Assembly: GCA_012960245.1 (NCBI GenBank)
Contig: DUBO01000038.1
Span: forward strand, 10,627-74,626
From: Candidatus Binatota bacterium
GTDB lineage: Bacteria; Desulfobacterota; Binatia; UBA1149
Direction: 5' to 3'
Length of the DNA stretch: 64,000 nucleotides
In this document: piece by piece, positions 1-27,340 of the stretch
How the letters are laid out: each line of letters starts with the position of its first letter
Numbering within the stretch: position 1 is the stretch's first letter
Made by a program: the position numbers and the translations under genes
Notes under the pieces: generated by a model
Told to the model about the DNA's origin: nothing
The model's database searches: none
What the model saw: the letters and a program-made list of their open reading frames with translations, nothing else

Positions 1-2140
1 TCCTCGTCCCAGATACACATCGCGTAGCCGAGCTCGCCGCTTACCGGGTTGCCAAAATCAGCGGTGCTCACGGCCGGACCGGGCAGCCATTTCCATAGCA
101 ACTTGTCACGCGTCTCACCGGGCCTGTCCTTGATCTCGAGCACGCTGCGGCCAGCAGACAAGGGACTCGTGCAGGTTTGGAGCGGCGCCGGCGAACATCC
201 AAATGCCCCTGACACGCAGCCCATGTTGGCGCAGGTGTCGCCCAGGGTGGTAGCATCGCCGTCCTCGCAGGCAGCCGTGTTGGCAGCCTGCAAGCAACCG
301 CTCGCAGGATCGCAGGAGTGGTCGCTGCATACGTTGCCGTCCTCGCAGTCGGGAGCCACACCGCCCACGCAGCCGCCAGCAGCGCAGGTATCGGCCGTGG
401 TGCAGGCGTTGCCATCGTCGCAAGGCAGAGAGTTGTCGTTATTGGTACAGCCGGTCACCGTGTTGCAGCCGTCGTCGGTGCAACCGTTCCCGTCGTCGCA
501 GTCGGGCGGCAGTCCGCCTACGCAGAGTCCGTCCGAACAGGTGTCGGCCGTGGTGCAGGCGTTGCCGTCATCGCAGCTTATAGAGACGTTGACACTATCG
601 CAGCCAGTGGGCGACACGCAGGAGTCTGCCGTGCACTGGTTGCCATCGTCGCAGTCAGGAGCAGCACCGCCCACGCAGGTACCGGCCGAGCAGGTGTCAC
701 CCGTGGTGCACGCATCGCCGTCGTCGCAGGCCAGGGTATTGGCGTCGTTGCGACAACCGGTACCCGGGTCGCAACTGTCGTCGGTGCACCCGTTGCCGTC
801 CTCGCAGTCCACTGACAGCCCGGACAGGCAGGCCCCGGCCGAGCAGGTGTCACCCGTTGTGCAGGCGTTACCATCGTTGCAGGCCGCGGTGTTGTTCGTG
901 CTGACGCAGCCCGCCGAGGGGTGGCAGGTGTCGTCGGTGCACACGTCGGCATCGTCACAGTCCGGAGCGGCACCACCCACGCAGACCCCGCCCGAACAGG
1001 TGTCGGCCGTGGTACAGGCGTTGCCGTCGTCACAGGCCAACGAAACGTCGTCATTCACGCAACCGGCAAAGGCGTCGCAGCTGTCCTCGGTGCAGGGATT
1101 GGAGTCGTTGCAATCGAGGGGCATGCTTCCCAGGCAGTTGCCGTCCCAGCAGGAATCAACCGTGGTGCAGACGCTGCCGTCGTCGCAAGCCAGGGTGTTG
1201 GGCTGATTACTGCAGCCCACGCCCGCGAGGCAGAGCTCGTCGGTGCAGCCGTTGTTGTCGTCGCAGACGACCAGGGGATCCTCGTCCATGCAGGTCGCCG
1301 AACAGCAGTCGCCGTCTGTGTTGTTGCCGTCATCGCACTGCTCACCCAGGTCGAGCACGCCGTTGCCGCACACATCTATCATGCGACCGAGCACCTTGAA
1401 CTCCTCGGTCAGGAAGTTGCCGAACGGGTCGGGGCCGTTCACCTTGAAGTGGTTGTCGCCACAGGGGCTACCGGCTACGCGATGCGCTATGACCGGGTTA
1501 CCCACGAAGCCGGGCGCCGGTGCGCGATTGGGGTCGGGATCATCAAAGACCAGGAAAGGGCCAACACGACTGTTGTTGATACCCGCAAACGAGGCGAGGT
1601 TGCCCGGCGGGCCGACGAGAAATCCTTGGATGTCTTCTATCACCAGGGTGCCGTCGGAAGCTGCCGTGGCCTCGTCGCTGCCGAAGGGGTGCTTGAAATC
1701 ATATTCGCCGCCAGGCACGAGACCCGAAGCGGTCACCAGGATTACAGCCTCGGCAAACTGTTTGCCGTCAACAGGCAGGCCCCCGTCAAGCGCTGTTCGC
1801 AGGCCCATAACCAGTGTTGCCGTGGCCCCGGAAGCAGACGTGGCCGTGGCCTCGGCCCGCCACCACCAGGCGCTGGACGGCCAGTTGCCCGGAAAAGACG
1901 CCGCCGCCGACGGGTCGGGAAGCTCCGAACCCGCAACGTGATTAAGACAGTTGGCCGCGTCCAGGCAGAGGTCGAGCGCCAAGGCTCCACTGTCCTGGTA
2001 GTAAAGAGGATAGCCGTTGGCCGTATCCACCGGGCCCACGCTGGTCGTGCTGAACACGCAATCGTGGTCGGCCTGGGCCGATGAAGCGCAAAGCATTACA
2101 AAAACAACCGGCAGCAGCGCGGTCAATAACTTATTGATGT
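1..2140 (-). CDS. Secreted cysteine-rich repeat protein (5' part; runs off window at position 1): signal peptide, ~170-aa N-terminal domain, myxo_disulf-like CGNGVLDLGEQCDDGNNTDGDCCSATC unit, then >=8 tandem ~47-aa Cys repeats (ACDDGNACTTxDTCSxGxCVGGxxPDCDDGNxCTDDxC)
   Basis: Reverse-complement translation from ATG at 2140 gives MNINKLLTALLPVVFVMLCASSAQA (signal peptide) followed by a continuous open frame to position 1. It is not in the ORF track because no stop lies inside the window. Plus-strand ORFs 49..1206 and 921..2084 are antisense artefacts of the repeats. Confidence 0.75.
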
Positions 2141-2435
2141 TCATTCTTTTACCCCGAGTCCAGGCGCACCGGCGCGAAGGCGGCAGATGCGGCGGACTGC
2201 TTAAGATTGAGGGGGATAAATTGAAGCTCAGCAGCCCCCCGGCGTGGGAAAGACAGCCCGTGAGCGTTTTTGCCGGGCTTGAGCCTCTACCGAGGGGCGG
2301 AAACCCGGCAAGGGGCAAGGCATGTGCTGCACCGAGGCCTACCCCCGAGGGGGGGGGCTGTTCCTGCCGAGCTAGTTGCCCACTGTTCCCGCCACCCTTG
2401 GCCTTTGTCGCGCGCGCAATTTACATTTACCCACG

Positions 2436-3695
2436 ATGGCCACTCGAATTGCACGCTACGATAACCCGCTGCGGGCCATGGAGTTCACGCGCGAACCAGG
2501 CGACTACCGCATTGAGAGCCACGGCCTGGTGGCCGCCGACTCGGGCAACTCCCAGGCCACCCTGTGGCTACCACGGGGCGAGCGGCCTCGCACCGTGGTG
2601 TCGCTGCTGCACCCTCAGGCCAACTTTACGCGTCACTACGCCGTGCCGCCGCTGCTCGAGGCCGGCCACGCGGTGTTCGCGCATAACAGCCGCTGCCTGG
2701 GCAACGACTCGACCGCCGTCCACGAACAACTGCTCATGGACGCGGCCGCGGGCTTGTTACGCCTGCGCGAGCTCGGCTTCGAGAGAATAGTGCTGCTGGG
2801 CAACAGCGGTGGCGGCTCACTGTACAGCTACTACCTGCAACAGTCCGCGTTGCCGCCCGAACAGCGGGTGACCGATACGCCGGCGGGACCCGCACCGCTG
2901 GGCGGCGCAGGCGGCGACCTGCGGAAAATTGAAATGCCCATGGCCGACGCCGTGGTCTTCCTGGCTGCGCACCCCGGCGAGGGGGATTTTCTGTTGCAGG
3001 TCATCGACGCGTCGGTCAGCGACGAGTCCGATCCCGTTTCCTGCCTGCCCTCCTTGGATCTTTACGACCCGGCCAACGGCTTTGGCCTTCCACCCGGTGA
3101 AACCCGCTACACCGACGAGTTTGTCGAGCGCTACCGCGCCGGGCAGCGCGCCCGCGTGGAGCGCATAGATGCGCGTGCACGCAAGATACTTGGCGTGAGA
3201 ACGGCGGCCCTCGAGCGGCTGGCCGAACAGCCCGACGACCGCGACGCCTGGCGCGCGGCAACCGCCGACACGCTGCTTAACACCTACCGCACCGAGGCAG
3301 ACCCGCGCTGCGTGGATCTCACGCTCGACCCCTCGGCGCGTGACTACGGCTCGCTGTTTGACCATCGGCCCGACCTCATCAATTACAACCCGCGTGGATT
3401 CGCGCGCACGACCACGCCCGAAGCCTGGCTCTCAACCTGGTCGGGGCTGTCTTCACGCGCGAGTTTTACCCGCTGCGGCAGCGACGTGACCATCCCGGCA
3501 CTGATGATCAACTACACGGGCGACAACGCGATCTTTCCTTCCGAGGCCCAGGCTATTTTTGAATCGCTGGGCAGCGCCGACAAAAAATTCGTCGAGCTGC
3601 CCGGCGATCACTACGGCCACCCGCTGGCGGACAGCGATGCCTGGGGACGAGACCTCGCGCTGGCCGAGATAACGGATTGGCTTTCGGGGCTATAG
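2436..3695 (+). CDS. Alpha/beta-hydrolase fold protein
   Basis: GNSGGG nucleophile-elbow-like motif (GxSxG), HGxP-type region. Start chosen at MATRIARYDN (2436) rather than the upstream ORF start at 2376. Confidence 0.7.
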   Translation: MATRIARYDNPLRAMEFTREPGDYRIESHGLVAADSGNSQATLWLPRGERPRTVVSLLHPQANFTRHYAVPPLLEAGHAVFAHNSRCLGNDSTAVHEQLLMDAAAGLLRLRELGFERIVLLGNSGGGSLYSYYLQQSALPPEQRVTDTPAGPAPLGGAGGDLRKIEMPMADAVVFLAAHPGEGDFLLQVIDASVSDESDPVSCLPSLDLYDPANGFGLPPGETRYTDEFVERYRAGQRARVERIDARARKILGVRTAALERLAEQPDDRDAWRAATADTLLNTYRTEADPRCVDLTLDPSARDYGSLFDHRPDLINYNPRGFARTTTPEAWLSTWSGLSSRASFTRCGSDVTIPALMINYTGDNAIFPSEAQAIFESLGSADKKFVELPGDHYGHPLADSDAWGRDLALAEITDWLSGL

Positions 3696-3735
3696 CTTTC
3701 CGGGCTATAGCTTTCCCGGCTATGGCTTTCCGGAT
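3684..3735. repeat. Short tandem repeat, ~15-16 bp unit (CGGGCTATAGCTTTC) x ~3.3 copies, lying across the stop codons of two convergent genes
   Basis: Direct reading: cggggctatagctttc / cgggctatagctttc / ccggctatggctttc / cggatggcg. The unit contains the GCTATAGC palindrome. Antisense ORF 3611..3799 shows the resulting ESYSPESYSPES peptide repeat. Confidence 0.8.
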
Positions 3736-5009
3736 GGCGTTCCGCGCACAACGTCGGCCAGGTTATCCACGTGACCGTCGTCGTTTGAAAGCAGTACATC
3801 GTTAAAACCGCAGCCCTCTTCTATGACGTCGAGCACCGCGGGCTGGTAGAACGAGGTCACCAGCGAGCGACGCATGGAGCCGCAGCCCAGGGGCGCGGGC
3901 GCAGCGTGCATGGTGTCGCCCAGGTGCATCAGCAGGTCGCCGGGCTCGCCAGCGACCGTGACCACGGGCAGGCCGACTTCCTCCTGGGCCGCGGGCGCGG
4001 AGCAGGCAAAGCGATGGCTTCCGGCCAGGAACTTGAGCGTACCCGTATCAGGGTTGGCGGGCTCGAGCAGCACACTCACCTGCACCACCGGGCAGAGAAG
4101 GGCGTGGCCACCCATGCCACAATCCACGTGCCATGGAAGATCCGACAGGCCGTCGGCGATGTCCGGGTTCTTGATGATGATAGCTATGCCGTCAAGACGG
4201 TCGGGGCCGGGCAACAGGCTGTCGTCAAAAGCCGCCACGAGGCGACGCACGCGGGGGTCGTCGCAGATGGCGGCTATGGAGGGACACGAGAGGTTGGCAT
4301 AGGTCACGCGGCACAAGCGGGTCTCGCCCTCGGCGCTGCGCGCCCACCAGCTGCGACGGTCCCCCTGCCGGGCTGCGGCTACCGCACTGTCGGCGTCGGC
4401 TCGCAGCACGGCGATCTCGTCTGCAGAAAACACCCCGCGCACGACGGCGAAGCCGGCCTCGCGAATAAAAAGCCCGAGCTCGGCGGCGCCAACATCTGCG
4501 GGGAAAACCTGCTCGATGTCCAGCCTGCCGCCGTCCTTGTCGCGAAGATCGAGCTCGCCGGGTACGAACACCGGCAGGCCGTGGTGCAAGGCCCTTATGG
4601 CCTGTTCCCAGCGCAACAGCAGCTCCACGTCACCGCGCTCAAGGCTGAGCATGCCCGAGTACAGCAGCGAGGGCACAGTACGCATCTGCTCGACGAACTC
4701 GCCCCAGGACACGGCACTCATGGCCACCACGCAGGCCGCGCGTTCGTCTCCCGCCACTACTTCCACCCCGTCGGGTCCGGGCAGGTAAGTGTAACTGGCT
4801 CCGTCCACCTCGAAGGCGATGCCTGCCAGGCCCACCGTGCCCGCGGCCGCCAGGCGGCCGTTGCCCGCCTGTATGCGTCGAGGCAACTCGTCGTTGTGAA
4901 ATTCTACGAAGTTCACGTTCTCTCCACCGGCAGCCCCGTTACCTTTAACGCAAAAGGGGCCACTACTCCCCCTTGCGAAAGAAGGAGGCCAGGTAGGGGC
5001 CGACCTCAT
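3720..5009 (-). CDS. Phytanoyl-CoA dioxygenase (PhyH)-family Fe(II)/2-oxoglutarate oxygenase with ~150-aa N-terminal extension. True start likely internal (around 4916, GTG), since the ORF start overlaps the upstream gene by 47 bp.
   Basis: PhyH-like core: FAVVRGVFSADEIAVLRAD ... WHVDCG (HxD) ... distal His. Confidence 0.6.
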   Translation of the reverse strand: MRSAPTWPPSFARGSSGPFCVKGNGAAGGENVNFVEFHNDELPRRIQAGNGRLAAAGTVGLAGIAFEVDGASYTYLPGPDGVEVVAGDERAACVVAMSAVSWGEFVEQMRTVPSLLYSGMLSLERGDVELLLRWEQAIRALHHGLPVFVPGELDLRDKDGGRLDIEQVFPADVGAAELGLFIREAGFAVVRGVFSADEIAVLRADADSAVAAARQGDRRSWWARSAEGETRLCRVTYANLSCPSIAAICDDPRVRRLVAAFDDSLLPGPDRLDGIAIIIKNPDIADGLSDLPWHVDCGMGGHALLCPVVQVSVLLEPANPDTGTLKFLAGSHRFACSAPAAQEEVGLPVVTVAGEPGDLLMHLGDTMHAAPAPLGCGSMRRSLVTSFYQPAVLDVIEEGCGFNDVLLSNDDGHVDNLADVVRGTPSGKP

Positions 5010-7753: not shown

Positions 7754-7777
7754 CTGGGTTTCAATGCCACCGAGGTT

Positions 7778-8644: not shown

Positions 8645-8743
8645 AGCAGGCCCCCGCGACGCGCCACGAAAAATCAACGCGCCAGTGACCGTCGCTACAC
8701 GCGTCGGGGAGAAGAAACAAAAGCTGAGACCAAAGCGGGGGCG

Positions 8744-9925: not shown

Positions 9926-10001
9926 CTGCTTAAGCTAAACCCGCAGGGGGACTGCTGTCAATAGCTTTCTGTGCGGTTACCGTCACCCAGACCGCCGGCG
10001 G

Positions 10002-12768: not shown

Positions 12769-13259
12769 TGCCCGAGCCGCAGCAACAGGGCCGCGCTGCC
12801 GCCGGGACGGCCAACGCTATAGAGTTCCCCTCGCTCGCGTGGTTCGAGCGCCTGGCCGCGATGATGAACGACAACCGCGCGCGGCAGGAAAAACTCGGCT
12901 ACACGGATTGCGTGGCCGGCTTCTCGGTGACCGGTACCGAAGCGCTGACCGTGCAGGTGAGCTTTGATGAGTTCGAAGCAGTGGACGTGCGCGTGGTCGA
13001 CGCGAGCGAAGCCTCGCGTGCCGACTTCACGCTGGAGGCCGATCTCGCGACCTGGCAGGCGATGATAGAAAGCATCGCCGCGGGCGAAGGTCGCCCTGCC
13101 CTCGACCAGACGCTCAACCGCCTGAGCCACATGGGCACGCCCCTGCGCCTGAGCTCGGACGACCCCCTGCGACGCGACATGTACTTTCGTTTCAACCAGA
13201 GCCTGCAGGAGTTTTTTAACGCTTCGGCGAGCTTCGAGACCAGCTTTCCCGCGTCCTGA
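12768..13259 (+). CDS. SCP2/sterol-carrier-like small protein (hypothetical)
   Basis: TAATG stop/start overlap with the upstream diiron gene. ~160 aa with SCP2-like C-terminal region. No catalytic motifs. Confidence 0.45.
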   Translation: MPEPQQQGRAAAGTANAIEFPSLAWFERLAAMMNDNRARQEKLGYTDCVAGFSVTGTEALTVQVSFDEFEAVDVRVVDASEASRADFTLEADLATWQAMIESIAAGEGRPALDQTLNRLSHMGTPLRLSSDDPLRRDMYFRFNQSLQEFFNASASFETSFPAS

Positions 13260-13270
13260 GCCTGTTACTC

Positions 13271-13561
13271 ATGCCCCGCCGACACGGACACTACTACGTA
13301 GACGACACCTGCATTGGTTGCGGCGCCTGCGATCACGCCTGCCCGGGCAAGGTGGAGGCGGTCTACGAGGTTCCCGGCGATTTTCTGGGCCGTTTCGCCA
13401 TCGTGGTCGAGGAGTGCATAGACTGCGACCTCTGCGTGCCGCTGTGCCCGGTCGACTGCATACACGACGCCCGCAACGAGGGCATAGCCAGCAAAGATGG
13501 CGACCTCGAGCAGATCAATAAACTCCAGTCCTGGGCAGAAGCCCGTCCCCAGCCGCTGTAA
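13271..13561 (+). CDS. 2x[4Fe-4S] ferredoxin
   Basis: CIGCGACDHACP and CIDCDLCVPLCP cluster-binding motifs. Confidence 0.85.
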   Translation: MPRRHGHYYVDDTCIGCGACDHACPGKVEAVYEVPGDFLGRFAIVVEECIDCDLCVPLCPVDCIHDARNEGIASKDGDLEQINKLQSWAEARPQPL

Positions 13562-13651: not shown

Positions 13652-15883
13652 TTGCCGATGAACAAATTCTATACAGCCATTGCCTGCGTCCTGTTGCTTA
13701 CCGCCTGCGGGCAACACGAGGGCCCGGGCAGCATAGAAGGCGCGGGCCAGCCCGACTCCATGGCAGCCGACAAGACGGCCCGCCAGGCGGCGACCGCCAA
13801 TGTCCTGGCCAACCGTGCGAAAGCCGGTGCAACAGACAAGCAGATCCTGTTCGGCGACCTGCACGTACACTCCACCTTTTCGGCCGACGCTTTCATGATG
13901 AGCCTGCCCATCCTCCAGGGCGAAGGCGCGCACCCGGTGGCCGACGCCTGCGACTTTGCGCGCTACTGCTCCAACCTCGACTTCTGGAGCATCAACGACC
14001 ACGCCGAGGCCATCACGCCCCTGCGCTGGAAGGAAACCACCGACACCATTCGCCAGTGTAACGAGTTGGCCGGTGACCCCGACAACCCCGACGTGGTGGC
14101 CTACCTGGGCTGGGAGTGGACGCAGATAGGCTTCACCCGCGACACGCACTACGGCCACAAGAACGTCATCCTGCGTGACCTCGACGACGGCATGATCCCC
14201 ACCCGGCCCATACACGCGGGCGGCCTCGCCGGACAAGGCATGCGCACCCGGCAGAGTTTTCTGCAGCGTTGGTTCCCGGTCGTCGCCGACCTCCCCAACG
14301 CCCAGCGCTACCTCAACGCCAACACCTTCCAGGAAGAAATCGGCGAGACTCCCATCTGCGCTGACGGCGTAGACACGCGCGAGCTGCCACCGGACTGCTC
14401 CGAAGAAGCGGTCTCACCCGACGTGCTCTACGAAAAACTCGCGCAGTGGGGACACGAGTCCATTGTTATTCCCCACGGCACCACCTGGGGCCTGTATTCG
14501 CCGCCCGGCTCGAGCTGGGACAAGCAACTGTCCGGAACCATGCACGACGCCGATCGGCAGACCCTGATCGAGGTCTTCTCGGGCCACGGCAACAGCGAAG
14601 AGTACCGCTCGTGGCGAGCCGCTGATATCGAACAGGAAGGAGCCGATGCCTGCCCAGCGCCCGAACCCGGCTTCGAGGCCTGCTGCTGGCGCGCCGGCGA
14701 AATCATCGGCGATCTCTGCGATAACCGGGATTCGGACGAGTGCCGCGAGAAGATAGTCGAGGCCCGCGCCAACTACCTGGCCGCGAGCCCATCGGGACGA
14801 CTGACAATCCCGTGGGCGCCGCTGGTCGAGTGGGGCAACTGCGACGAATGCAGCGACTGTTTCATACCCTCGATGGGTTACCGCCCGGCCAGCTCGGCCC
14901 AGTACATCATGGCGATTTCGAACTTCGAGGACGAAGACAAGGAGCCACGACGATTTCGCTTCGGCTTCATGGCGTCGAGCGACAACCACACCGCCCGCCC
15001 CGGTACCGGCTTCAAGGAATTTGACCGGCAGGCCAACACCGAGGCCGCCGGCGCCCGCGACGAGACCTGGGCCAAGCGCTTGATGCCCAGCTACCTCGCC
15101 CCGGCAGGCGACCGCTCCCAGCAGGTCACGCCGGGCGACCCGGCCGCCATGCGTACGCAGATCGTCGACTTCGAACGACAGGCGTCGTTCTTCATGACCG
15201 GTGGCCTGGTGGCCGTGCACTCCCCGGCGCGTGATCGCGGAGCGATATGGGACTCGATGGCACGCCGCGAGATCTACGGCACCAGCGGCCCGCGCATACT
15301 GCTCTGGTTTGACCTCCTCAACGGCCCCGACGGCGAGGTGCTGCCCATGGGCAGTGAACTCGAGCTGGCCAACAACCCGCGCCTGCGCGTGCGCGCAGCC
15401 GGTAGCTTTGAGCAGACCGAGGGCTGCCCCGAAGAATCACTGTCGGCCCTGTCACCCGAGCGACTGGCCTACCTCTGCCGTGGCGAGTGCTACAACCCGG
15501 GCGAAAAACGCCGGCAGATAACCCGCATAGACGTGGTGCGCATCAGGCCGCAGGAATCGCCCGACGAGGACGTGGCCGACCTCATCGACGACCCCTGGCG
15601 CAGTTTTGACTGCCCGGCCGACGCCGACGGCTGCACGGTAGAGTTCGACGACCCCGAGTTCCTGGGCAGCGGCCGCGAGGCGCTCTACTACGCGCGCGCC
15701 ATCGAAGAGCCCACGCCCACGGTGAACGCCGGCGGATCGCGGTGCGAATTTGACGAGCAGGGCGACTGCAAGCCCGACCCCTGCTACGGCGACTACCGCA
15801 CCGACTACGACGACGACTGCCTGGAGCCGGCCGCCCACCGCGCCTGGTCGTCGCCGATATTCCTGACGCCGGCGGGCAGCTGA
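13652..15883 (+). CDS. DUF3604-family lipoprotein (PHP-like metal-binding N-terminus) with Cys-rich acidic C-terminus
   Basis: Lipobox LLLTACG. FGDLHVHSTFSADA motif characteristic of DUF3604. C-terminal CxxC/acidic segment. Confidence 0.6.
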   Translation: MPMNKFYTAIACVLLLTACGQHEGPGSIEGAGQPDSMAADKTARQAATANVLANRAKAGATDKQILFGDLHVHSTFSADAFMMSLPILQGEGAHPVADACDFARYCSNLDFWSINDHAEAITPLRWKETTDTIRQCNELAGDPDNPDVVAYLGWEWTQIGFTRDTHYGHKNVILRDLDDGMIPTRPIHAGGLAGQGMRTRQSFLQRWFPVVADLPNAQRYLNANTFQEEIGETPICADGVDTRELPPDCSEEAVSPDVLYEKLAQWGHESIVIPHGTTWGLYSPPGSSWDKQLSGTMHDADRQTLIEVFSGHGNSEEYRSWRAADIEQEGADACPAPEPGFEACCWRAGEIIGDLCDNRDSDECREKIVEARANYLAASPSGRLTIPWAPLVEWGNCDECSDCFIPSMGYRPASSAQYIMAISNFEDEDKEPRRFRFGFMASSDNHTARPGTGFKEFDRQANTEAAGARDETWAKRLMPSYLAPAGDRSQQVTPGDPAAMRTQIVDFERQASFFMTGGLVAVHSPARDRGAIWDSMARREIYGTSGPRILLWFDLLNGPDGEVLPMGSELELANNPRLRVRAAGSFEQTEGCPEESLSALSPERLAYLCRGECYNPGEKRRQITRIDVVRIRPQESPDEDVADLIDDPWRSFDCPADADGCTVEFDDPEFLGSGREALYYARAIEEPTPTVNAGGSRCEFDEQGDCKPDPCYGDYRTDYDDDCLEPAAHRAWSSPIFLTPAGS

Positions 15884-17812: not shown

Positions 17813-17866
17813 CCGGAGCATGGACGCCCGGCGGGTAGTAGCGCCTCGCGGCGCTTGTGTCGGATG

Positions 17867-17882
17867 CGGCACAGCGATTGCA
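17867..17882 (+). promoter_or_regulatory. Sigma-54-type promoter (cGGCAC-agcga-TTGCa) for the FG-GAP/Cys-repeat gene
   Basis: GG-N10-GC spacing. 66 bp upstream of ATG 17948. Confidence 0.5.
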
Positions 17883-17947
17883 ACGTTAAAGGAAAAGAAT
17901 ACAGCGGCGGGAGCCTTACAGGGGCCCCTGCCGGGGGGACAGATAAC

Positions 17948-20900
17948 ATGACCACTGAATACCATTCATCGATTTACCGCAGCGATCCCATGGGCCCAGG
18001 CGCCGCTTGCGTCGCAGTGCGGGGTTTTTCTTTGCTCGCGCTGGCAGTGCTTGCCATCACGCTGACAGCCCAGCAGGCCCAGGCGGTACCGGCCGAGGTC
18101 TCGGCCCAGGCCGTGAGCGGCCACGATTACCTGGGCGGTGGCGCGCTGGCCACCGATTCGGGCCGCGGCGTGGCCGTGGGCGATCTTGACGCTGACGGCT
18201 TTGACGACATCGCCATAGGCGTGCCCGGCAGCGACCACGTGTGCCTTGTACGCGGGCCCATCGCCATGGGAGCAGCGCCCGAAGACGTGAGCGTGCTTTG
18301 CAAAGCCGGCGCCGTCGCGCCCAACGCCTTCCGCATCAACGCACCCACGGCCTTGACGGGCAGCGGCGGTTTTGGCCTGGGCCTTGAGATTGCCGACATC
18401 GACTGCGACGGGCAGAACGACCTCATCATCGGTGACCCACTGGCCGATCCGGTGGCCGGCCTCGCGGGTGGAGTAAAGGTTGATGGCGGTGCCATCCACG
18501 TGCTGCACAAGTCGGCGGGACTTGTGTGGGGACAGGAAATATTTGCCGATAACTGGCGCCTGTACACCGGGGGCAACGGCTACTCGATAATGAGCGGTGG
18601 CGCGCAACTGGAAATGTTCGGCTACCCGGCAGCCGGCGATATAGACAACGACGGACTGGTCGACCTCGTGGTCGGCGCACCCATACACCGCCACGGATTC
18701 GCCCGCGCTGGACGCGTGTACCTGCTTGGAACCGCGGCCGTGGTCGAGTTCAACTTCTGCGCCAACGGCCCCATCAACAATCCCGTCTCCCAGCCCTTGA
18801 GCATCATGGACGGCGCGCCGGCCTGTGGCGGCTCCTGCTCCTGCGTCGCTTCGGCCTGCATCGACATGAAGAAAGACGACGCCTGGTTCGGCCAGGGCAT
18901 TGACGTGGCCGACGTCAATGCCGACGGCATCGACGACCTCGTGGTCGGGTCTCCCAGCGACGGCGTGGCGGTGGAATCGCGCGTGTACATCAAGTACGGA
19001 CCCATAGCGGCTTCGCCCGCGGTCTACCCGGTGGACTTTCCCTCGCCTTATTCCAGCGCCGACAGTTGCATAGGAGACGGCGACGCGGCGTTTGATCGCC
19101 TCGGCACAGACCTGGCCGCCGCCGACTACGACGGTGACGGTAAGCTCGAACTCTACATTGGCGCGCCCTTGTATTCCGGAGGCGGAATGGTCCAGAACGG
19201 CGGCGTCTTTGCGCTGACGGGCGGAAACTACGGCGCCCTGACCACGTCCATATCCACCGCACCCGTGGTCTGGTACGGCAAGGTCAACGACGGTAATCTC
19301 GGCTGGGGCGTAGACCTCGGCGACCTCGATGACGACGGCGCCCTCGATCTCTCGGTTGGCGGCTCGGGCATAGGCGACCCCAACGGCAGCACGCACGTAA
19401 TAAAAGAACCCGCCCCCGACCCCTGCCTGACCCTGGTGTGCAATGACGCCAACGAGTGCACCTCGGACTCCTGCGCGCTGGGCGCCTGCGTGTTCACGCC
19501 GGTGGCCAACGGTACTGCCTGCACCGACGACGGACTTTACTGCACTGGCACCGAGACCTGCCAGGCGGCGGTCTGCACCAGCGCCGGCGACCCCTGCGCG
19601 GGTGGCGCCGAATGCGACGACAGTTGCGACGAAGCAGCTAACAGCTGCGCGGTGGCGGTGAATACAGCCTGCACCAGCGACGGCAACGAATGCACCGACG
19701 ACGCGTGCGACGGCACGGGCGCCTGCGCGCATCCGGCCGTGGCCAACGACACTGTCTGCACCGACGACGGACTTTACTGTACTGGTTCAGAATCCTGCCA
19801 GGCTGGAGCCTGCACCAGCGATGGCGACCCCTGCGTCGGTGGCGCCGAGTGCGCCGACAGTTGCGACGAGGCGGCCAACAGCTGTGACGTGAGTGCGGGA
19901 ACAGCCTGCACGAACGACGGCAACGAATGCACCGACGACCAGTGCGACGGAGCGGGCGCCTGCGCGCATTCGGCCGTAGCCAACGGAACGGCCTGCTCGG
20001 ACGACGGGCTTTACTGCACGGGCACCGAGACCTGCCAGGCCGCGTCCTGCACCAGCGCCGGCGACCCCTGCGCGGGTGGCGCCGAGTGCGCCGACAGTTG
20101 CGACGAGGCGGCCAACAGCTGCGACGTGAGCGCTGGCACCGCCTGCATCGATGACGGCAACGAGTGCACCGACGACGAGTGCGACGGCGCGGGCGCCTGC
20201 GCGCATCCGGCCCTGGCCAACGGAACGGCCTGCTCGGACGACGGGCTTTACTGCACGGGCATTGAGACCTGCCAGGCCGCGGTCTGCACCGGCGCCGGTG
20301 ACCCCTGTTCAGGGCTGGGCGTGTGCTTCAGCTGTGACGAGGCCGCCGATAGCTGCGACGACACCGACGCCGACGGCGACCTGATCTGTGGTCCCGATGA
20401 CAACTGCGCCGCCGAGTACAACCCGGACCAGCTCAACAGTGACTGTCCCCCTGGAGGCACCGACACCGGCTTCGGTGGCATAGACTGCTCGGCTCCCCTG
20501 GGCGCCAACGAAGCGGGCTGCTGTGACGGTGGCGATGTATGCGACGCCTGCCCGGCCAACAACGACAACTCGAAGTGCGACGCCGGCCTGTCGGGCGGCG
20601 AGAGCATCGGGGCCGCAGGAGGCAGCTTCAGCCTCGGTGGCTGTCTAAGCGTAACCATCCCTGCCGGCGCCCTGGCGGCCGACACCAGTATCTCTGTGTC
20701 CACAGGGCTCAACGCTTCGACCAACCCGCTGATAGGCGGCGACCCGATCAAGCTGAAGAAGGCCGGTGGATCGTCAGTTCACAAGTACATAATACTGCCG
20801 CACGGACAGTCATTCCTCGTGCCCATCACGCTGGGATTCTGCTGGGACGACGCCGATAACGATGGCACGGTTGACCTCGGGACCTGTGATCTCGACGCGT

Positions 20901-21820
20901 CGCTGACCTGCGACGACAACGCCGACTGCGGTGCTTTTGCCCCCTGCAACGGTGGCGGGAGCATGGCTGAAAACAACCTGCTGCTGCGCCGCGAGGGCAA
21001 GAACTTTGACTACGCCGGCTTTGGGACTTCGGCGCCCGGCAGTGTCCAGAAATGCGGCGACGCCGAACACCAGAACGTGGGCACCTGCGGGCCCGCCGCG
21101 GCAGTAGCAGACTGCACGGACGCGCCCGGGGTCGACGAAGCCAGCGTGGCCAACTGCTGCGACACGGCCGGCAACTCCTGGCCCTGGCAGACCTGCAACT
21201 TCTCCGAGTACTACTTCGGAGAACTTTCCGGCGACCTTATACCAGGCAAGGGCAGCGAGAAGACCGACTGTCACCTCGAGTGGAGCGTGGTCAATCCTTT
21301 CAACACCGAGGACAAGTACGACAGGAGAGGCCTGCTCAACTACAAGCAGGACTGCACCGATGGTGACGCCAATTGCGACAAGGACGGCGAAGCCAACGGG
21401 GTGTGTATCTTCGAAATCGGCCTTTGCCTGAACGTCGACGACAGTCGCCTGTTCGACAAGAAGACCCTCGACCCGGTCTGCACCCCGACAGCGACCGACC
21501 TGTTCCAACTCAAGAAACCCCGGCCCAACAGTCGCAAGCTGCACGAGGCCGAGGCGGCCGAGGCGCTGCTGGCCGCGGTGATGGAGCTCGACGTGGAGGC
21601 AACGATCGGTGGCCGCAGGCTCAACGAGGTGACCTTCTCGGGTCTCGGCTACGACAACGGCGACGCCTGCACCAATACATTCCAACTCGAGGTGCCGCTC
21701 AACGGACGCTCCAAGGCCAAGGGCAAGCTCAAGGCCGGCGTAGAAACCGTAGCCTCGGAAACCCTGCGCGCAACCAAGGACAAGGACACGCTCAAGTTTA
21801 CCTGTTACAGCAGCGAGTGA
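17948..21820 (+). CDS. Large secreted FG-GAP (integrin-alpha-like) repeat protein with tandem Cys-rich 79-aa repeats and thrombospondin-type-3-like Asp-rich segment
   Basis: Signal peptide (LLALAVLAITLTAQQAQA). >=6 FG-GAP-like units (GDLDADGFDDIAIGVPG, ADIDCDGQNDLIIGDP, GDIDNDGLVDLVVGAP...). Repeats NGTACTDDGLYCTGTETCQAAVCTSAGDPCAGGAECxDSCDEAANSC. Then DTDADGDLICGPDDNC. Confidence 0.8.
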   Translation: MTTEYHSSIYRSDPMGPGAACVAVRGFSLLALAVLAITLTAQQAQAVPAEVSAQAVSGHDYLGGGALATDSGRGVAVGDLDADGFDDIAIGVPGSDHVCLVRGPIAMGAAPEDVSVLCKAGAVAPNAFRINAPTALTGSGGFGLGLEIADIDCDGQNDLIIGDPLADPVAGLAGGVKVDGGAIHVLHKSAGLVWGQEIFADNWRLYTGGNGYSIMSGGAQLEMFGYPAAGDIDNDGLVDLVVGAPIHRHGFARAGRVYLLGTAAVVEFNFCANGPINNPVSQPLSIMDGAPACGGSCSCVASACIDMKKDDAWFGQGIDVADVNADGIDDLVVGSPSDGVAVESRVYIKYGPIAASPAVYPVDFPSPYSSADSCIGDGDAAFDRLGTDLAAADYDGDGKLELYIGAPLYSGGGMVQNGGVFALTGGNYGALTTSISTAPVVWYGKVNDGNLGWGVDLGDLDDDGALDLSVGGSGIGDPNGSTHVIKEPAPDPCLTLVCNDANECTSDSCALGACVFTPVANGTACTDDGLYCTGTETCQAAVCTSAGDPCAGGAECDDSCDEAANSCAVAVNTACTSDGNECTDDACDGTGACAHPAVANDTVCTDDGLYCTGSESCQAGACTSDGDPCVGGAECADSCDEAANSCDVSAGTACTNDGNECTDDQCDGAGACAHSAVANGTACSDDGLYCTGTETCQAASCTSAGDPCAGGAECADSCDEAANSCDVSAGTACIDDGNECTDDECDGAGACAHPALANGTACSDDGLYCTGIETCQAAVCTGAGDPCSGLGVCFSCDEAADSCDDTDADGDLICGPDDNCAAEYNPDQLNSDCPPGGTDTGFGGIDCSAPLGANEAGCCDGGDVCDACPANNDNSKCDAGLSGGESIGAAGGSFSLGGCLSVTIPAGALAADTSISVSTGLNASTNPLIGGDPIKLKKAGGSSVHKYIILPHGQSFLVPITLGFCWDDADNDGTVDLGTCDLDASLTCDDNADCGAFAPCNGGGSMAENNLLLRREGKNFDYAGFGTSAPGSVQKCGDAEHQNVGTCGPAAAVADCTDAPGVDEASVANCCDTAGNSWPWQTCNFSEYYFGELSGDLIPGKGSEKTDCHLEWSVVNPFNTEDKYDRRGLLNYKQDCTDGDANCDKDGEANGVCIFEIGLCLNVDDSRLFDKKTLDPVCTPTATDLFQLKKPRPNSRKLHEAEAAEALLAAVMELDVEATIGGRRLNEVTFSGLGYDNGDACTNTFQLEVPLNGRSKAKGKLKAGVETVASETLRATKDKDTLKFTCYSSE
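19506..20330 (+). repeat. Intragenic near-identical tandem DNA repeats, 237-bp unit (~3.5 copies), encoding the 79-aa Cys-rich repeat
   Basis: gccaacgg/acnnn...tttactgcac unit recurs at ~19506, 19743, 19980, 20217. The ORF track shows near-identical antisense mini-ORFs at 237-bp offsets (19537-19761, 19774-19983, 20011-20220). Confidence 0.8.
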
Positions 21821-21831
21821 GCCTGCAGCCG

Positions 21832-21862
21832 CGCCGGCCGAAACCAGGCCGACGCGGCTACG
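21832..21862. terminator. GC-rich hairpin between convergent genes (possible bidirectional terminator)
   Basis: gccgcgccggcc-gaaacca-ggccgacgcggc nested stems. No clear T-tract. Confidence 0.3.
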
Positions 21863-21874
21863 GCCGCGGGTCGT

Positions 21875-22852: not shown

Positions 22853-22901
22853 GACGGTTAGTTAGGCGAGCGCCCCCGCTCTGGCAATCAGGCGGCCCGC
22901 T

Positions 22902-24479
22902 TCAAGGGCGAACCGTATGACTGGTGGGCCCCACCAGCGTGGCCAGGCGCGGCTGTATCCACTCCACCCAGCGGCACAGGCGCTCGCGGGTTTCGGCGGG
23001 CTCGATGAGATCGTGCACACCGAAGGACTCGGCGCGCGGAAACGGCGTGCGCGAGGCGGCGAACTGTTCCTCGAGCTCGCTGCGAAGGGCGTCGGGATCA
23101 TCGGCGGCGGCTATCTCGCGTCCGAAGGCCACCGCCACGCCACCCTCGACGGGCAGCGCGCCGCTCTCGGCCGAGGGCCAGGCCAGCACGTACGAGTCCG
23201 GGCCGAAATGGGCCGCGGCGGCCACGCCGAAGGCCTTGCGCAGGTGAACCGCCGCCCAGGGCACCGATGACTGGTTGGCCGCAAATATGGTCTGCGCGCC
23301 GTAGCGGATGGTGCCGGCCGCCTCGGCACCGGTGCCTATCATGAAACCGGGCTCGTCGACCAGGCTGATGATGGGCAGGTGAAAGCTGTCACAGAGGTCA
23401 ATGAAACGCCTGGCCTTCTGCGCCCCGTCGGCGTCCATCGCGCCAGCCCAGAAGCGGCAGTCGTTGGCCCACACGCCCACCGCCTGCCCGTCCAGTCGCG
23501 CCAGGCCGGTGACCTGCGAAGGCCCGTAGCCGGCCGACATCTCGAAGAAACTGCCCGCGTCAAATACCAGTTCCAACACCCGCCTGATGTCGAAGGCCTT
23601 GCGACGGTCGCGCGGGATGATCGAGTTGAGTTCGCTTTCGGCCCGGGATGGATCGTCGTCGCAGGCCACCCGGGGCGCCGGCTCCCAGACGTTGGTGGGC
23701 AGGTAGGAAAGAAAGCGCCTTACCTGCGCCAGCGCACCCGCTTCGTCGTCGGCCAGGTTGTCGACCACGCCGCTGTGCATGTGCACGGCCGCACCGCCGA
23801 GTTCTTCCTTGGTTTTCTTCTCGCCCAGCGCGCGCTCAACAACCGCCGGCCCGGCGATGAGCACCTGGGATGTATCGCGCACCATTATGGAAAAGTGAGA
23901 AGACACCAGGCGCGCAGCCGGGAAACCCGCCACCGGCCCCAGTGCCACCGACACCACGGGCACCGCCGCCATGGCCTCGGCAAACGACATGAACCTGGGC
24001 GTAACGTAAACCGGATCGCCGGCGTGGGCTCCGCCGCCACCCTTGCCCGCGTTCTTGCCGCCACGTGTTCCGGCCACGCTGCCGCCGCCGCCCTCGAGCA
24101 GGCGCACCAGGGGCACCCGGTACTGCACGGCCAGTTGCTCGGCGTAGACGCTCTTGCGCAGGCCGGCCGGCGTGGGCGACCCGCCCTTGAGCGTGAAATC
24201 CTCGCCCCCTACCACGCAGGGCCGACCGTCCAGGCGCGCCATGCCCAGCACGTAGTTGCCCGGCGTGAATTCGACCAGGCGTCCCTCGTCGTCGATCTCG
24301 GAGTGACCGGCCATCGGGCCCTGCTCGGCGAAGCTCCCCTCGTCGACCAGCACGTCAATGCGCTCGCGCACCGTCAGGCGGCCCTTGCCGTGCTGACGCT
24401 CAACGGCCTCGGCGCCGCCCATGGCCAGCGCGGCCTCGCGGCGCGCCCGTATCCCCTCGGTTTCCTTGTCCCAGCCCAC
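22902..24479 (-). CDS. Acyl-CoA carboxylase carboxyltransferase subunit (propionyl-CoA carboxylase beta-like)
   Basis: Carboxyl-transferase domain: GKGRLTVRERIDVLVDEGSF ... GGEDFTLKGGS ... two-lobed CT architecture. Confidence 0.8.
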   Translation of the reverse strand: MGWDKETEGIRARREAALAMGGAEAVERQHGKGRLTVRERIDVLVDEGSFAEQGPMAGHSEIDDEGRLVEFTPGNYVLGMARLDGRPCVVGGEDFTLKGGSPTPAGLRKSVYAEQLAVQYRVPLVRLLEGGGGSVAGTRGGKNAGKGGGGAHAGDPVYVTPRFMSFAEAMAAVPVVSVALGPVAGFPAARLVSSHFSIMVRDTSQVLIAGPAVVERALGEKKTKEELGGAAVHMHSGVVDNLADDEAGALAQVRRFLSYLPTNVWEPAPRVACDDDPSRAESELNSIIPRDRRKAFDIRRVLELVFDAGSFFEMSAGYGPSQVTGLARLDGQAVGVWANDCRFWAGAMDADGAQKARRFIDLCDSFHLPIISLVDEPGFMIGTGAEAAGTIRYGAQTIFAANQSSVPWAAVHLRKAFGVAAAAHFGPDSYVLAWPSAESGALPVEGGVAVAFGREIAAADDPDALRSELEEQFAASRTPFPRAESFGVHDLIEPAETRERLCRWVEWIQPRLATLVGPTSHTVRP

Positions 24480-24538
24480 GGACTGGTTTTAGCAAACCCC
24501 GGCCGTGATGAAAGGCCGCGTCATTTACCCACCTCTTT

Positions 24539-27340
24539 CTACAGGCACAGGCAGCCCGGTGCGCCGGTGGGATCGACGGTACAGACCTGGGCGGGATCGG
24601 CGCACACCCCGTTGCAGGTGGGTCCGCCAAGCGACTCGCAGGGGTCCTCGGGTGGATCAACGCACTCGCACTCCTGCAGCCCGGCGCTGTACTCGCAGAC
24701 CTGGCCGGGATTAATGCACACCCCGTTGCAGGTGGGTCCGGCCAGCGACTCGCAGGGGTCCTCGGGCGGGTCAACGCACTCGCACTCCTGCAGTCCGGCG
24801 CTGTACTCGCAGACCTGGCCGGGGGTGCTACACCACCCGTCACAGGTGGGTCCGGCCAGCGACTCGCAGGGATCCCCCGGCGGGTCAACGCACTCGCACA
24901 GGGCGGCAGTCACTACACCCGACTGCTCACAGAGCTGAGGATACGGGCAGGTGCCCGCGCAGGCAGGCGACGACGCCACGACGCAGGGCAACAGCTTCCA
25001 CGGCCAGCAGCTACCGTCCGTCACGTCGTTGTCGAACTGGTCGCAGTCATACTCCAGGTTGTCAACGCCGTTGATCAGCCGCGCCATGCGCGCAAGTGCG
25101 ACCCTTTGGACACAGTCCACGAACGCCGCCGGCGCGACAGAGCGGTCAGCGAGTGCGCACTCACCGGGAAACGCCAGCCCGAGATCCACCGTCGCGCACT
25201 TCTTTAACACCGCCTTCTCTACCTTGGCGACCGACCGCGCCAGTTTGCCGCGAGCGTCAGTCTTGATCGCCTCGAAGCCTTCGACCAGCGGACCGGGAAG
25301 TACCGGCAACTCCGGCACTTCGAGCAGGCCTTTCTTCTTCCAGTACGCAAAGCTCCCCAGGCCCGATTTCATTACCCCGCCCATGGCCTTGAATACGACC
25401 GCCTGGCAGCGAGCGCCGTCCCGGTCAATGTCATCCGCGATAATCGCTGCGTCGGCGTCGTCACCCAGCAGGTCAACGAGCGTTCCTACCTCGTGGTCGA
25501 GCACCTCGGCCGCGGCGTCGGCCGCCGCCACGTAGCCATAGGGGGGCGCCGGATTGAGCGCGAAGACTTCGCACTTCGTCGTGTCCACCTTTTCCAGCTT
25601 GGCGATAGCCTTTGCCACCTTGCCCCTGCGATCGGCCCGAACACACTCGGCCACGCTGGCCTCGCGCCCGCGACCGGCATCCTTGACGCAGGAGGCATTC
25701 TCTTTTTCCTGGACCTTGGCCAGCTTGAACGCCGCCTTGTTCATGGCGGCAATGCAGCCCGGGGCGCCCTCCGGAAATTCGAACGCCGAGGTGCAATCGT
25801 CGAAGCAAAAGGGACTACCCCCCTCGCTGAACGGCGGATCACAGTCTTCGCCCGGGCCGACCATGCCGTCGCCGCAGATCGCCCCGCGCGCGAACAGGAT
25901 GTCCCAGTCATTGTCGATGCCGCCCGTGTCGTATTCACTCGCCCACACCGCCACCCAGTTGCCGGCGCTGTCGCTTGTCAGCTGGGGGACGAAGTCCCAG
26001 ACAGAATCAACAGCAGCGTGGCTGTTGAGCGGCGCCGCAGCGCTCCAGGTCGCACCGTTGTCGGTCGAGCGCGCGAACAGGATGTCAGGATCATCACCGA
26101 TGCCGCCCGTATCGTAGGAACTCTCCCACACCGCCACCCAGTTGCCGGCGCTGTCGGTTGTCAGCTGGGGGTAGGAGTAATTCCAAAGACTAGAAAAATC
26201 CGAAGAATCAGAATCAACAGCAGCATAGCTGTTAAGCGGCGCCGCCGCGCTCCAGGTCGCGCCGTTGTCGGTCGAGCGCGCGAACAGGATGTCATAATCA
26301 TCACCGATGCCGCCCGTGTCGTATTTACTCCCCCACACCGCTACCCAGTTACCGGCGCTGTCGGTTGTCAGCTGGGGGGGCAGGTCATCATAGTCACCAC
26401 CAGGATCAACAGCAGCGTAGCTGTTAAGCGGCGCCGCAGCGCTCCAGGTCGCGCCGTTGTCGGTCGAGCGCGCGAACAGGATGTCATAATCACTACCGAT
26501 GCCGCCCGTGTCGTAGCGACTCCACCACACCGCCACCCAGTTGTCAGCGCTGTCGGTTGTCAGCTGGGGGAATAAGTCAGAATCACCATCCCACCCAGGA
26601 GAATCAACAGCAGCGTAGCTGTTAAGCGGCGCCGCAGCGCTCCAGGTCGCGCCGTTGTCGGTCGAGCGCACGAACAGGATGTCAGAATCATTACCGTAGC
26701 GACTCCACCACACCGCCACCCAGTTGCCGGCGCTGTCGGTTGTCAGCTGGGGGGACCAGTCAATAGTACCGTCACCAGTACTTGGGCTGTGAAGCGGCGC
26801 AGCGGCGCTCCAGGTCGCGCCGTTGTCGGTCGAGCGCGCGAACATGATGGCAGGATCAGTAGTCGGGTACCCACTGGTCCACACCGCCACCCAGTTGCCG
26901 GCGCTGTCGGTTGTCACCGGGACCCCCCCGCCGTTGTTGATTGGGTTCCAATTCCAGTCAGTGTTAACTGTTGCGTAGCTGTTAAGCGGTGCGGCCGCGC
27001 TCCAGGTCGCGCCGTTGTCGGTCGAGCGCGCGAACAGGATGTCCCAATCACCACCTATGCCGCCGGTGCCGTATTCACTCCTCCACACCGCCACCCAGTT
27101 GCCGGCGCCGTCGGTTGTCAGCTCGGGGACCCTGTCCCCGTTAGAACTGCTATACCCACCATGAAAATCAACAGCAGCGTAGCTGTTAAGCGGCGCCGCA
27201 TCTCCGAACTTCATGCCGGCGGCTCCCACCGGTGCGGCCGACAGTACCAGCATCGCCAGCACCGCCACCGTTAAAGCCGCTACGCTCACAACGCTCCGGA
27301 CAGTCTCCAACCTTGAAATTGAAACCACGTCTGAATCCAT
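24539..27340 (-). CDS. Secreted BNR/Asp-box repeat protein (sialidase-like beta-propeller repeats) with myxo_disulf-like unit and C-terminal 6-Cys tandem module
   Basis: Signal/TM N-terminus. ~9 repeats of ILFARSTDNGATWSAAAPLNSYAAVD (SxDxGxTW Asp-box). ICGDGMVGPGEDCD. C-terminal 3x PCESLAGPTCxGxCxxPGQVCEYSAGLQECEC. Confidence 0.8.
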   Translation of the reverse strand: MDSDVVSISRLETVRSVVSVAALTVAVLAMLVLSAAPVGAAGMKFGDAAPLNSYAAVDFHGGYSSSNGDRVPELTTDGAGNWVAVWRSEYGTGGIGGDWDILFARSTDNGATWSAAAPLNSYATVNTDWNWNPINNGGGVPVTTDSAGNWVAVWTSGYPTTDPAIMFARSTDNGATWSAAAPLHSPSTGDGTIDWSPQLTTDSAGNWVAVWWSRYGNDSDILFVRSTDNGATWSAAAPLNSYAAVDSPGWDGDSDLFPQLTTDSADNWVAVWWSRYDTGGIGSDYDILFARSTDNGATWSAAAPLNSYAAVDPGGDYDDLPPQLTTDSAGNWVAVWGSKYDTGGIGDDYDILFARSTDNGATWSAAAPLNSYAAVDSDSSDFSSLWNYSYPQLTTDSAGNWVAVWESSYDTGGIGDDPDILFARSTDNGATWSAAAPLNSHAAVDSVWDFVPQLTSDSAGNWVAVWASEYDTGGIDNDWDILFARGAICGDGMVGPGEDCDPPFSEGGSPFCFDDCTSAFEFPEGAPGCIAAMNKAAFKLAKVQEKENASCVKDAGRGREASVAECVRADRRGKVAKAIAKLEKVDTTKCEVFALNPAPPYGYVAAADAAAEVLDHEVGTLVDLLGDDADAAIIADDIDRDGARCQAVVFKAMGGVMKSGLGSFAYWKKKGLLEVPELPVLPGPLVEGFEAIKTDARGKLARSVAKVEKAVLKKCATVDLGLAFPGECALADRSVAPAAFVDCVQRVALARMARLINGVDNLEYDCDQFDNDVTDGSCWPWKLLPCVVASSPACAGTCPYPQLCEQSGVVTAALCECVDPPGDPCESLAGPTCDGWCSTPGQVCEYSAGLQECECVDPPEDPCESLAGPTCNGVCINPGQVCEYSAGLQECECVDPPEDPCESLGGPTCNGVCADPAQVCTVDPTGAPGCLCL

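Follow-up and report, generated by a model that had tools for sequence, protein, structure and literature searches.

A 64,000-nucleotide stretch of DNA from Candidatus Binatota bacterium (GenBank assembly GCA_012960245.1, contig DUBO01000038.1, positions 10,627 to 74,626; hereafter the window) encodes three large proteins, P1, P2, and P3, that share a common plan of Sec export, an N-terminal head, a disulfide stalk, and a C-terminal module. The tail of P1 is the start of a very large C-terminal domain family that has no Pfam, NCBIfam, or Protein Data Bank (PDB) entry, and for which we coined the name BCT. P1–P3 are new combinations of known repeat types plus four modules without a family match. 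Judging from sequence, we lean, if only slightly, towards viewing them as extracellular or surface binding proteins, in which a head is carried on a rigid stalk and a lineage-specific C-terminal module provides retention or sorting.

P1 (3..2144, minus strand) runs off the window, which holds amino acids (aa) 1–714 of 831; the full gene is found at L001:12866-15361. P2 (17948..21820, plus strand) and P3 (24539..27340, minus strand), read from their open reading frames (ORFs) and translations, are secreted proteins of 1290 and 933 aa. The heads comprise a 230-aa domain without a match in P1, an FG-GAP propeller with calcium-type loops in P2, and an Asp-box propeller in P3. The P1 stalk is built from 51-aa Dicty_CTDC pairs and that of P2 from 79-aa units, while P3 has only one CGDG unit and a mid domain with paired Cys. 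At the C-terminus, P1 carries BCT, P2 a thrombospondin-type-3 (TSP3)-like motif followed by a ZU5-like domain and an end domain of ~190 aa, and P3 three 38-aa six-Cys repeats.

An earlier sequence-only reading of the first 27,340 nucleotides had called three large, secreted, disulfide-rich modular proteins, and the ORFs, their third-position GC (GC3), and their Sec-type N-termini confirm this. The window has a GC content of 65%, with real genes marked by open frames of high GC3, a value that reaches 0.76–0.80 in the ORFs of P1, P2, and P3. Signal peptides of the Sec type begin all three. The profile hidden Markov model (HMM) searches proposed in that reading were positive: TIGR02232 myxo_disulf_rpt matched P1 aa 256–287 at 31.5 bits (cut-off 20.8), FG-GAP matched P2 at 87.7 bits (cut-off 22.1), and P3 matched BNR_2 at 58.5 bits (cut-off 31.4) and BNR at 54.8 bits (cut-off 27). 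P1 orthologs are colinear in three other metagenome-assembled genomes (MAGs), two of which (L003 and L004) encode 831 aa; for L003, 132 of the 172 nucleotide differences fall at codon position 3. Other assemblies contribute 5 contigs on which an identical 1290-aa P2 has been called. Given the GC3 values, the colinear orthologs that differ mainly at codon position 3, and the repeated calls of P2, we conclude that P1, P2, and P3 are real genes. Their products are strongly acidic (Asp+Glu versus Lys+Arg of 117/33, 193/55, and 129/50 for P1, P2, and P3, respectively) and contain 71 (8.5%), 88 (6.8%), and 38 (4.1%) Cys.

BCT, the C-terminal domain family of P1

Within the window, only the first third of the P1 BCT is present (aa 651–714; 3..194, minus strand), as the 'LEIKD...DKLLWKW...DFGNPV' tail that aligns with BCT HMM positions 4–68 (E 9e-18). 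The sequence-only reading took P1 to end in a distinctive ADFGNPV tail and advised looking beyond position 1. Reading the complete P1 from the matching contig L001 revealed that the protein extends 117 aa past the window edge, to the same 831 aa on both matching contigs. The tail therefore exists, although it is neither the end of the protein nor an oddity, being a member of a very large domain family. The complete P1 BCT aligns with all six conserved Cys of this ~180-aa domain.

A word-indexed homolog search with the P1 tail returned one relative, P0001. The rarity that this single match suggested was overturned by an exhaustive HMMER search, for which the P0001 domain (38% identical to the P1 tail) served as the query: 5,747 cluster representatives were recovered at E≤1e-3, 3,885 at E≤1e-10, and 111 at E≤1e-30. 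Conservation includes the six invariant Cys along with WKW, DFGDP, PAGGTCxGKPCW, and CW motifs. In the best 152 proteins, 141 domain matches (~93%) lie within 5 residues of the C-terminus. The polypeptide closes with N-x4-F-[KR]-D-[KR]-[SG]-[DE], a motif conserved up to the stop codon, with Phe at position −6 in 85 of 101 proteins. When five BCT domains, that of P1 included, were compared with the Pfam and NCBIfam models, none gave a match at E≤1, and the BCT profile found no sequence match in the PDB. AlphaFold2 modeled the domain with high confidence (pLDDT 94.8) as an all-β, compact sandwich of short strands, for which a fold comparison with the PDB gave nothing with E<1e-3 and a best TM of 0.29. 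The six invariant Cys probably form disulfides.

BCT is attached to diverse passengers. Among 65 members, these include DUF4215 (11), Disintegrin (8), Dicty_CTDC (6), SGL (5), Laminin_G_3 (4), and CBM96 (4), as well as several propellers, among them lactonase-type ones, a GH5 cellulase, and others. Signal peptide-like N-termini were seen in 58 of the 91 BCT proteins that start with Met. We scanned one genome per species with a 6-sequence alignment, which confirmed 291 stretches, and examined the best 80 loci. Almost all of these reside in MAGs labeled Candidatus Binatia, 'delta proteobacterium', Deltaproteobacteria, Polyangiaceae (including UTPRO1), or Thermodesulfobacteriota, and the domain is likely restricted to Binatia. 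One 7-Mb contig holds 8 of the 80 listed loci, and 12 of 77 loci have at least two BCT genes, with tandem pairs among them. In L068 and L073, P3-like propellers (37–47% identity) stand immediately upstream of BCT, which indicates that heads and tails are shuffled. A survey of the loci for Cys-rich ORFs that lack BCT and might carry alternative C-terminal tags yielded only six cases.

Heads, stalks, and ends of P1, P2, and P3

P1 starts at an ATG at 2144 with GGGGT upstream, instead of at 2140 as previously read. It had also been said to open with a CGNG unit. Two elements come first: the signal peptide MNINKLLTALLPVVFVMLCASSAQA (2070..2144, minus strand), found by direct reading with a hydrophobic window score of 2.96, and the 230-aa head (1380..2069, minus strand). 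The head has no Pfam match at E≤1 and no PDB sequence match; the sole match of the word-indexed homolog search, P0002, is 30% identical and bears a Terriglobales label. The proposal that all three N-terminal domains are of adhesion or propeller type thus holds for FG-GAP in P2 and BNR in P3 and fails for P1, whose head contains no recognized adhesion or propeller domain. The CGNG-type unit itself follows as a single myxo_disulf/DUF4215 unit, CGNGVLDLGEQCDDGNNTDGDCCSATC (1284..1379, minus strand), which is the stretch that satisfies TIGR02232; on DUF4215, it scores 19.7 bits, under the 27-bit cut-off.

The P1 stalk (195..1283, minus strand) is an array of 51-aa double units (25+26 aa) of the Dicty_CTDC type, each containing 8 Cys. 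Pfam Dicty_CTDC (PF00526) is matched at 57.8 bits over 4 stretches (cut-off 27), and Tandem Repeats Finder (TRF) reports a 153-nt period (51 aa) × 4.8 at 298..1031. A 47-aa Cys repeat had been proposed from the sequence alone; TRF gave no such period, the repeats being 51 aa in P1 and 38 aa in the P3 tail. A P1 paralog in MAG NIOZ-UU50 (L010:3886-6537, plus strand; JACNKC010000068.1) has a head 41% identical to that of P1, one DUF4215-like unit, and BCT, with a stalk of P2-type 'CDDGLFCTGVETC...DGVGCTDDSCDE' units. Stalk types have therefore been exchanged between paralogs. As a separate observation, the P1 ortholog on the UBA1149 contig DBZX01000024.1 (L005:6001-6468) follows BCT only to residue 156, with 98% identity. 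Past this point, the frame remains colinear and lacks a stop codon, with an excess of non-synonymous differences, a pattern that probably stems from a frameshift or a misassembly close to the 3′ end.

The head of P2 is an integrin alpha-like FG-GAP β-propeller (aa 47–495; 18086..19432, plus strand) with six calcium-type DxDxDGxxD loops at aa 79–459. Against the PDB, it finds integrin alpha chains with an E of 1.5e-5. The Cys-rich stalk (19433..20347, plus strand) comprises 3.5 units of 79 aa with 12 Cys each. The 79-aa repeat of the sequence-only reading was correct, as TRF returns a 237-nt period (79 aa) × 3.5 with 85% matches at 19475..20307. On Dicty_CTDC, P2 reaches 22 bits, which is under the 27-bit cut-off, and it is no member by that test.

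The last 501 aa of P2 represent a conserved module with 11 homologs of 29–46% identity, in which the partner domains include Beta_helix, Disintegrin, and others. Alignment with these homologs delineates a TSP3-like DxDxDGxxDxCDNCPxxxNPDQLNSD motif and, behind it, a ZU5-like β-sandwich into which Cys-rich segments are inserted (together 20348..21235, plus strand). A Foldseek search with the model of the P2 tail, which is of moderate confidence (pLDDT 67.9), retrieved the ZU5 domains of ankyrin and UNC5 with a probability of 1.0 and a TMt of 0.53–0.56. Two homologs pass the 21-bit cut-off of Pfam ZU5 (P0161 at 25.9 bits and P0163 at 21.9 bits); P2 itself gives no match at E≤1. The domain resembles those of ankyrin, UNC5, and PIDD in predicted fold, in having homologs that pass Pfam ZU5, and in being closed by a Phe-Ser pair. 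Unlike eukaryotic ZU5, it is bacterial, presumably extracellular, and interrupted by Cys-rich insertions. The closing sequence is 'WQTCNFSEYY' (21170..21190, plus strand; aa ~1085–1090), and across the homologs, the xFS[EDQ] pattern has an invariant Phe and a nearly invariant Ser. This end corresponds to the HF|S site at which the ZU5/UPA proteins of eukaryotes cleave themselves. P2 and its homologs do not conserve the His; autoproteolysis of P2 is a possibility.

A terminal domain of 194 aa (LIPGKGSxxTDCxxEW ... KDKDTLKFTC; 21236..21817, plus strand) completes P2. It is conserved in 7 homologs and has no Pfam match. We considered whether it might be a divergent BCT and rejected this, as hhalign assigned a probability of 0.1%. 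In three shorter homologs (P0161–P0163), the end domain is replaced by a hydrophobic C-terminal tail, 'IPALSxWGWxLLVAG...', and because of this replacement, the sequences suggest that the end position of the P2-type module serves anchoring. By eye, the tails resemble IPTL/PEP-CTERM signals, a likeness that HMMs do not confirm.

The P3 propeller (25880..27220, minus strand) contains no Cys and displays six exact STDNGATW Asp-boxes spaced 56–69 aa apart. TRF finds a 192-nt period (64-aa blades) × 6.5, the blades being near-identical recent duplicates with 76% matching at the DNA level. Next come a CGDG...GEDCD unit, CGDGMVGPGEDCD, and a mid domain with paired Cys (together 24941..25879, minus strand). 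Of the myxo_disulf-like units proposed in the sequence-only reading, that of P1 passes the HMM and that of P3 resembles the family at the motif level only; neither P2 nor P3 has a TIGR02232 or DUF4215 HMM match. The mid domain looks Lys/Ala-rich and is probably helical as judged by eye, lacks a Pfam match or significant PDB match, and has weak relatives in the Binatia loci L039 and L081. The C-terminal part of P3 (24542..24940, minus strand) consists of about 3 copies of a 38-aa six-Cys repeat, detected by TRF as a 114-nt period × 2.8 with 89% matches at 24582..24899. Records lack the exact 933-aa product, although a 921-aa version lies at the same position in GCA_039833305.1, and a truncated 515-aa version is also called in other assemblies (cf. 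L084:9592-9873). These differences suggest that the repeat number is variable or collapsed, or that the start differs.

The P3-type repeat recurs elsewhere in the window. A fourth secreted Cys-rich protein, of only 232 aa (55030..55728, minus strand), carries two copies that match the P3 repeat by tblastn (50% identity, E 2e-11), preceded by a signal peptide and an N-domain with 'LKCYKIKD'. It has no Pfam match.

Proposed function and its alternatives

In the arrangement that we favor, the heads of P1–P3 would bind extracellular ligands. For P2, the closest parallels are integrin alpha-type propellers and bacterial FG-GAP/VCBS adhesins, with which it shares FG-GAP repeats, six calcium-type loops, and a PDB match. 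Unlike integrin alpha, P2 has no β-subunit partner, thigh or calf domains, or transmembrane helix, and what comes after its propeller are Cys-rich units and a module of the ZU5-like kind. The Cys-rich units, in turn, would act as rigid, disulfide-stabilized spacers that hold the heads away from the cell, comparable to slime-mold coat proteins. Dictyostelium spore-coat Cys repeats (Dicty_CTDC; SP75-like C4C modules) and avian CREMP resemble the stalks of P1 and P2 as arrays of ~25-aa four-Cys units in secreted, acidic, structural extracellular proteins, and slime-mold proteins with these units build disulfide-bonded coat layers (PMC3068167). Unlike the Dictyostelium repeats, those described here have a bacterial host, are organized as 51-aa pairs (P1) or 79-aa 12-Cys super-units (P2), and are positioned between a head and a C-terminal module.

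The C-terminal modules may keep the proteins at the cell surface or matrix, or sort them to it. For BCT, a role in retention or sorting is suggested by its fixed terminal position, its dozens of unrelated passengers, enzymes among them, and its many copies per genome, since dockerins, SLH domains, and the C-terminal domains (CTDs) of the type IX secretion system (T9SS) behave likewise. It is possible, though doubtful, that BCT is the recognition or attachment tag of a Binatia-specific sorting or surface-anchoring route and marks a 'surfaceome' of thousands of proteins, with the P2-type end domain and the P3-type 38-aa repeats as alternative tags of the same kind. Such a tag would be a functional analog of the T9SS CTD or of exosortase/PEP-CTERM, built on an unrelated six-Cys β-sandwich.

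BCT resembles the shared C-terminal modules of known systems (T9SS CTD, dockerin, SLH, and PEP-CTERM/IPTL-CTERM) in being terminal, in having dozens of passengers, and in occurring as many paralogs per genome. It differs from the T9SS CTD, dockerin, SLH, and PEP-CTERM in its three presumed disulfides, lack of a transmembrane helix, lack of a sequence match, and lack of a recognizable cognate machinery at the 80 loci. The T9SS CTD is, like BCT, a small β-sandwich, of ~80–100 aa and roughly half the size of BCT, and the five BCT domains gave no match to the T9SS sorting domain (Por_Secre_tail) among Pfam and NCBIfam models at E≤1. The C-terminal β-barrel of type V secretion system (T5SS) autotransporters spans ~250–300 aa; BCT has no Pfam match to this class, and its predicted fold is a compact sandwich, not of the barrel type. 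Finally, PEP-CTERM, IPTL-CTERM, and MYXO-CTERM signals, in which a short motif precedes a C-terminal transmembrane helix and a basic tail, do not describe P1, P2, or P3, each of which ends in a soluble domain with no terminal hydrophobic helix.

Several observations weigh against this interpretation. Around the 80 BCT loci, no neighboring gene, such as a sortase-like or secretion component, is conserved, and the largest neighbor 'clusters' are antisense shadow ORFs of the Cys repeats. A clear signal peptide is lacking in 33 of the 91 Met-starting BCT proteins, most of which look like 5′-truncated metagenomic calls. The MAG labels of the loci are heterogeneous and include two Terriglobales contigs. 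For P2, the tail model is of moderate confidence only (pLDDT 67.9), and NCBIfam sorting-signal models applied to the tails of P0161–P0163 gave no passing match, the one related hit being midcut_by_XrtH at 16.6 bits (cut-off 45). Moreover, a few BCT copies among the best 152 proteins are internal, N-proximal, or duplicated within one protein, an arrangement that suits a binding module as well as an anchor.

The last point leads to the main rival, in which BCT is a ligand- or carbohydrate-binding module (CBM- or lectin-like) that directs diverse exported enzymes and binding proteins to one shared substrate outside the cell. We take this possibility seriously without favoring it. Fusions to a GH5 cellulase, CBM96, Laminin_G_3, and lactonase-type propellers fit such a role, as do the β-sandwich fold, the internal or duplicated copies, and the lack of a conserved partner gene nearby. 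However, CBMs are usually free in position, whereas ~93% of BCT copies stop no more than 5 residues short of the C-terminus, with conservation of the end motif reaching the stop codon; BCT also has no CBM or lectin match in Pfam and no fold match in the PDB. Present data do not separate the anchoring from the ligand-binding reading of BCT.

If sorting or anchoring turns out to be the role of BCT, the domain would reveal a new surface-display route in diderm bacteria; if merely structural, it would be an ordinary, though useful, addition to the described domain families. In either case, defining BCT would better annotate thousands of 'hypothetical proteins' and would provide a simple marker that predicts exported Binatia proteins. 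The Binatia (UBP10), an uncultured phylum with a worldwide distribution, have so far been characterized solely through metabolic reconstruction, and we found nothing published on their cell surface or secretome. P1–P3 show that these bacteria assemble large extracellular proteins from shuffled parts, namely heads, disulfide-knotted stalks, and C-terminal modules specific to the lineage.

It is unlikely that P1–P3 are extracellular enzymes, with P3 a sialidase/GH33-like hydrolase, the P1 head an enzyme, and the Cys repeats merely stabilizing linkers. This notion draws on the BNR_2 match of P3, on weak PDB matches to sialidases and anhydrosialidases (E 4e-4 to 4e-3), and on BCT relatives that are fused to real enzymes. 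The PDB matches, however, span one or two blades only, and no catalytic-family HMM passes its cut-off. GH33 sialidases are characterized by a FRIP motif, a catalytic Arg triad, and a Tyr/Glu nucleophile pair. P3 contains no FRIP ([FYW]R[IVL]P) motif anywhere, and the ten Arg of its propeller mostly occupy the same repeat position (...LFAR, closing each blade). The absence of FRIP, together with the near-identical, recently duplicated blades, makes a sialidase function improbable for P3.

The sequence-only reading had linked the architecture of P1–P3 to surface or matrix proteins of social and predatory bacteria. That P1–P3 are of this myxobacterial kind and serve such a lifestyle is, in our view, slightly less probable still. 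The P1 unit belongs to TIGR02232, a family first defined in Myxococcus. This Cys-rich acidic repeat (TIGR02232/DUF4215) is common to P1, in one unit, and to BCT proteins, where it is the commonest partner (11 of 65). The homologs of the P2 tail recall the TSP3 part of Myxococcus MtsC, at 25.7 bits far under the cut-off of 350, and a DUF4215 protein has been found by proteomics in diatom adhesive trails. Unlike the Myxococcus repeat arrays, P1 has a single unit, the only one to pass the HMM, and P3 a motif-level unit, and the host belongs to Binatia, not Myxococcota. The function of the TIGR02232/DUF4215 repeat is unknown even in myxobacteria. The earlier remark that the repeat families are poorly characterized stands, as very little has been published on DUF4215 and Dicty_CTDC.

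The window differs at 14 of 15,009 bases (99.9% identity) from Guaymas plume contigs of GCA_015660195.1 (DQLL01000022.1) and JGI 3300001683 (GBIDBA), and the P1 BCT is 93–98% identical in MAGs named 'bacterium UBP10_UBA1149', 'Candidatus Binatia bacterium CB21', and 'Proteobacteria bacterium NIOZ-UU50'. The source is an uncultured deep-sea bacterium close to UBA1149; like its nearest relatives, it belongs to Binatia (UBP10) and derives from a hydrothermal plume. The Binatota phylum paper lists UBA1149 and UTPRO1 as orders, with UBA1149 genomes from marine hydrothermal vents and Lake Kivu. It describes methylotrophy and alkane degradation and nowhere mentions cysteine, secretion, adhesion, or social traits, leaving the proposed lifestyle unsupported. 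Overall, the sequence-only reading was largely right in what it observed and partly right on architecture, and it erred on the organism, the lifestyle, and the treatment of the three genes as one locus.

The idea that the long frames arose by chance in GC-rich DNA, or that misassembled repeats created them, can be dismissed, and is refuted for P1 and P2. In its favor, high-GC DNA does give many long shadow ORFs, the exact P3 product is off record, and a 921-aa variant of P3 exists. Against it, HMM matches are significant, orthologs are under purifying selection, P2 is identical in five independent contigs, and BCT homologs number in the thousands.

Genomic context and other genes

Although positions 1..27340 had been presented as one set, P1, P2, and P3 are separately located genes that form neither a cluster nor a single locus, because they lie on different strands with unrelated genes between them. 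The gaps of ~16 kb (P1 to P2) and 2.7 kb (P2 to P3) are filled by unrelated metabolic genes, of the hydrolase, PhyH, short-chain dehydrogenase/reductase, TetR, DUF3604, methyltransferase, luciferase-like, and carboxyltransferase types. Between and around the three genes, both strands encode α/β hydrolases, PhyH, an epimerase, ChaN, SMP-30, short-chain dehydrogenases/reductases, TetR, a ferredoxin, DUF3604, an O-methyltransferase, a luciferase-like monooxygenase, a carboxyltransferase, CsoR, ArsP, TauD, and a P450. No tRNA or Rfam RNA family was found in the window.

Two neighborhoods merit mention in their own right. A small 2×[4Fe-4S] ferredoxin (13220..13561, plus strand) lies directly upstream of a 743-aa DUF3604 protein (13652..15883, plus strand), and the pair is kept in other assemblies. 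Towards the far end of the window, a 1246-aa multicopper oxidase-like protein (58343..62083, minus strand; Cu-oxidase_2 and DUF7482, with His-rich copper motifs by eye) adjoins a gene for a fused SCO1/SenC–cytochrome c–PCuAC copper-chaperone protein (62500..63888, minus strand). Across these two copper-protein genes, the GC content drops from ~0.65 to 0.56–0.61.

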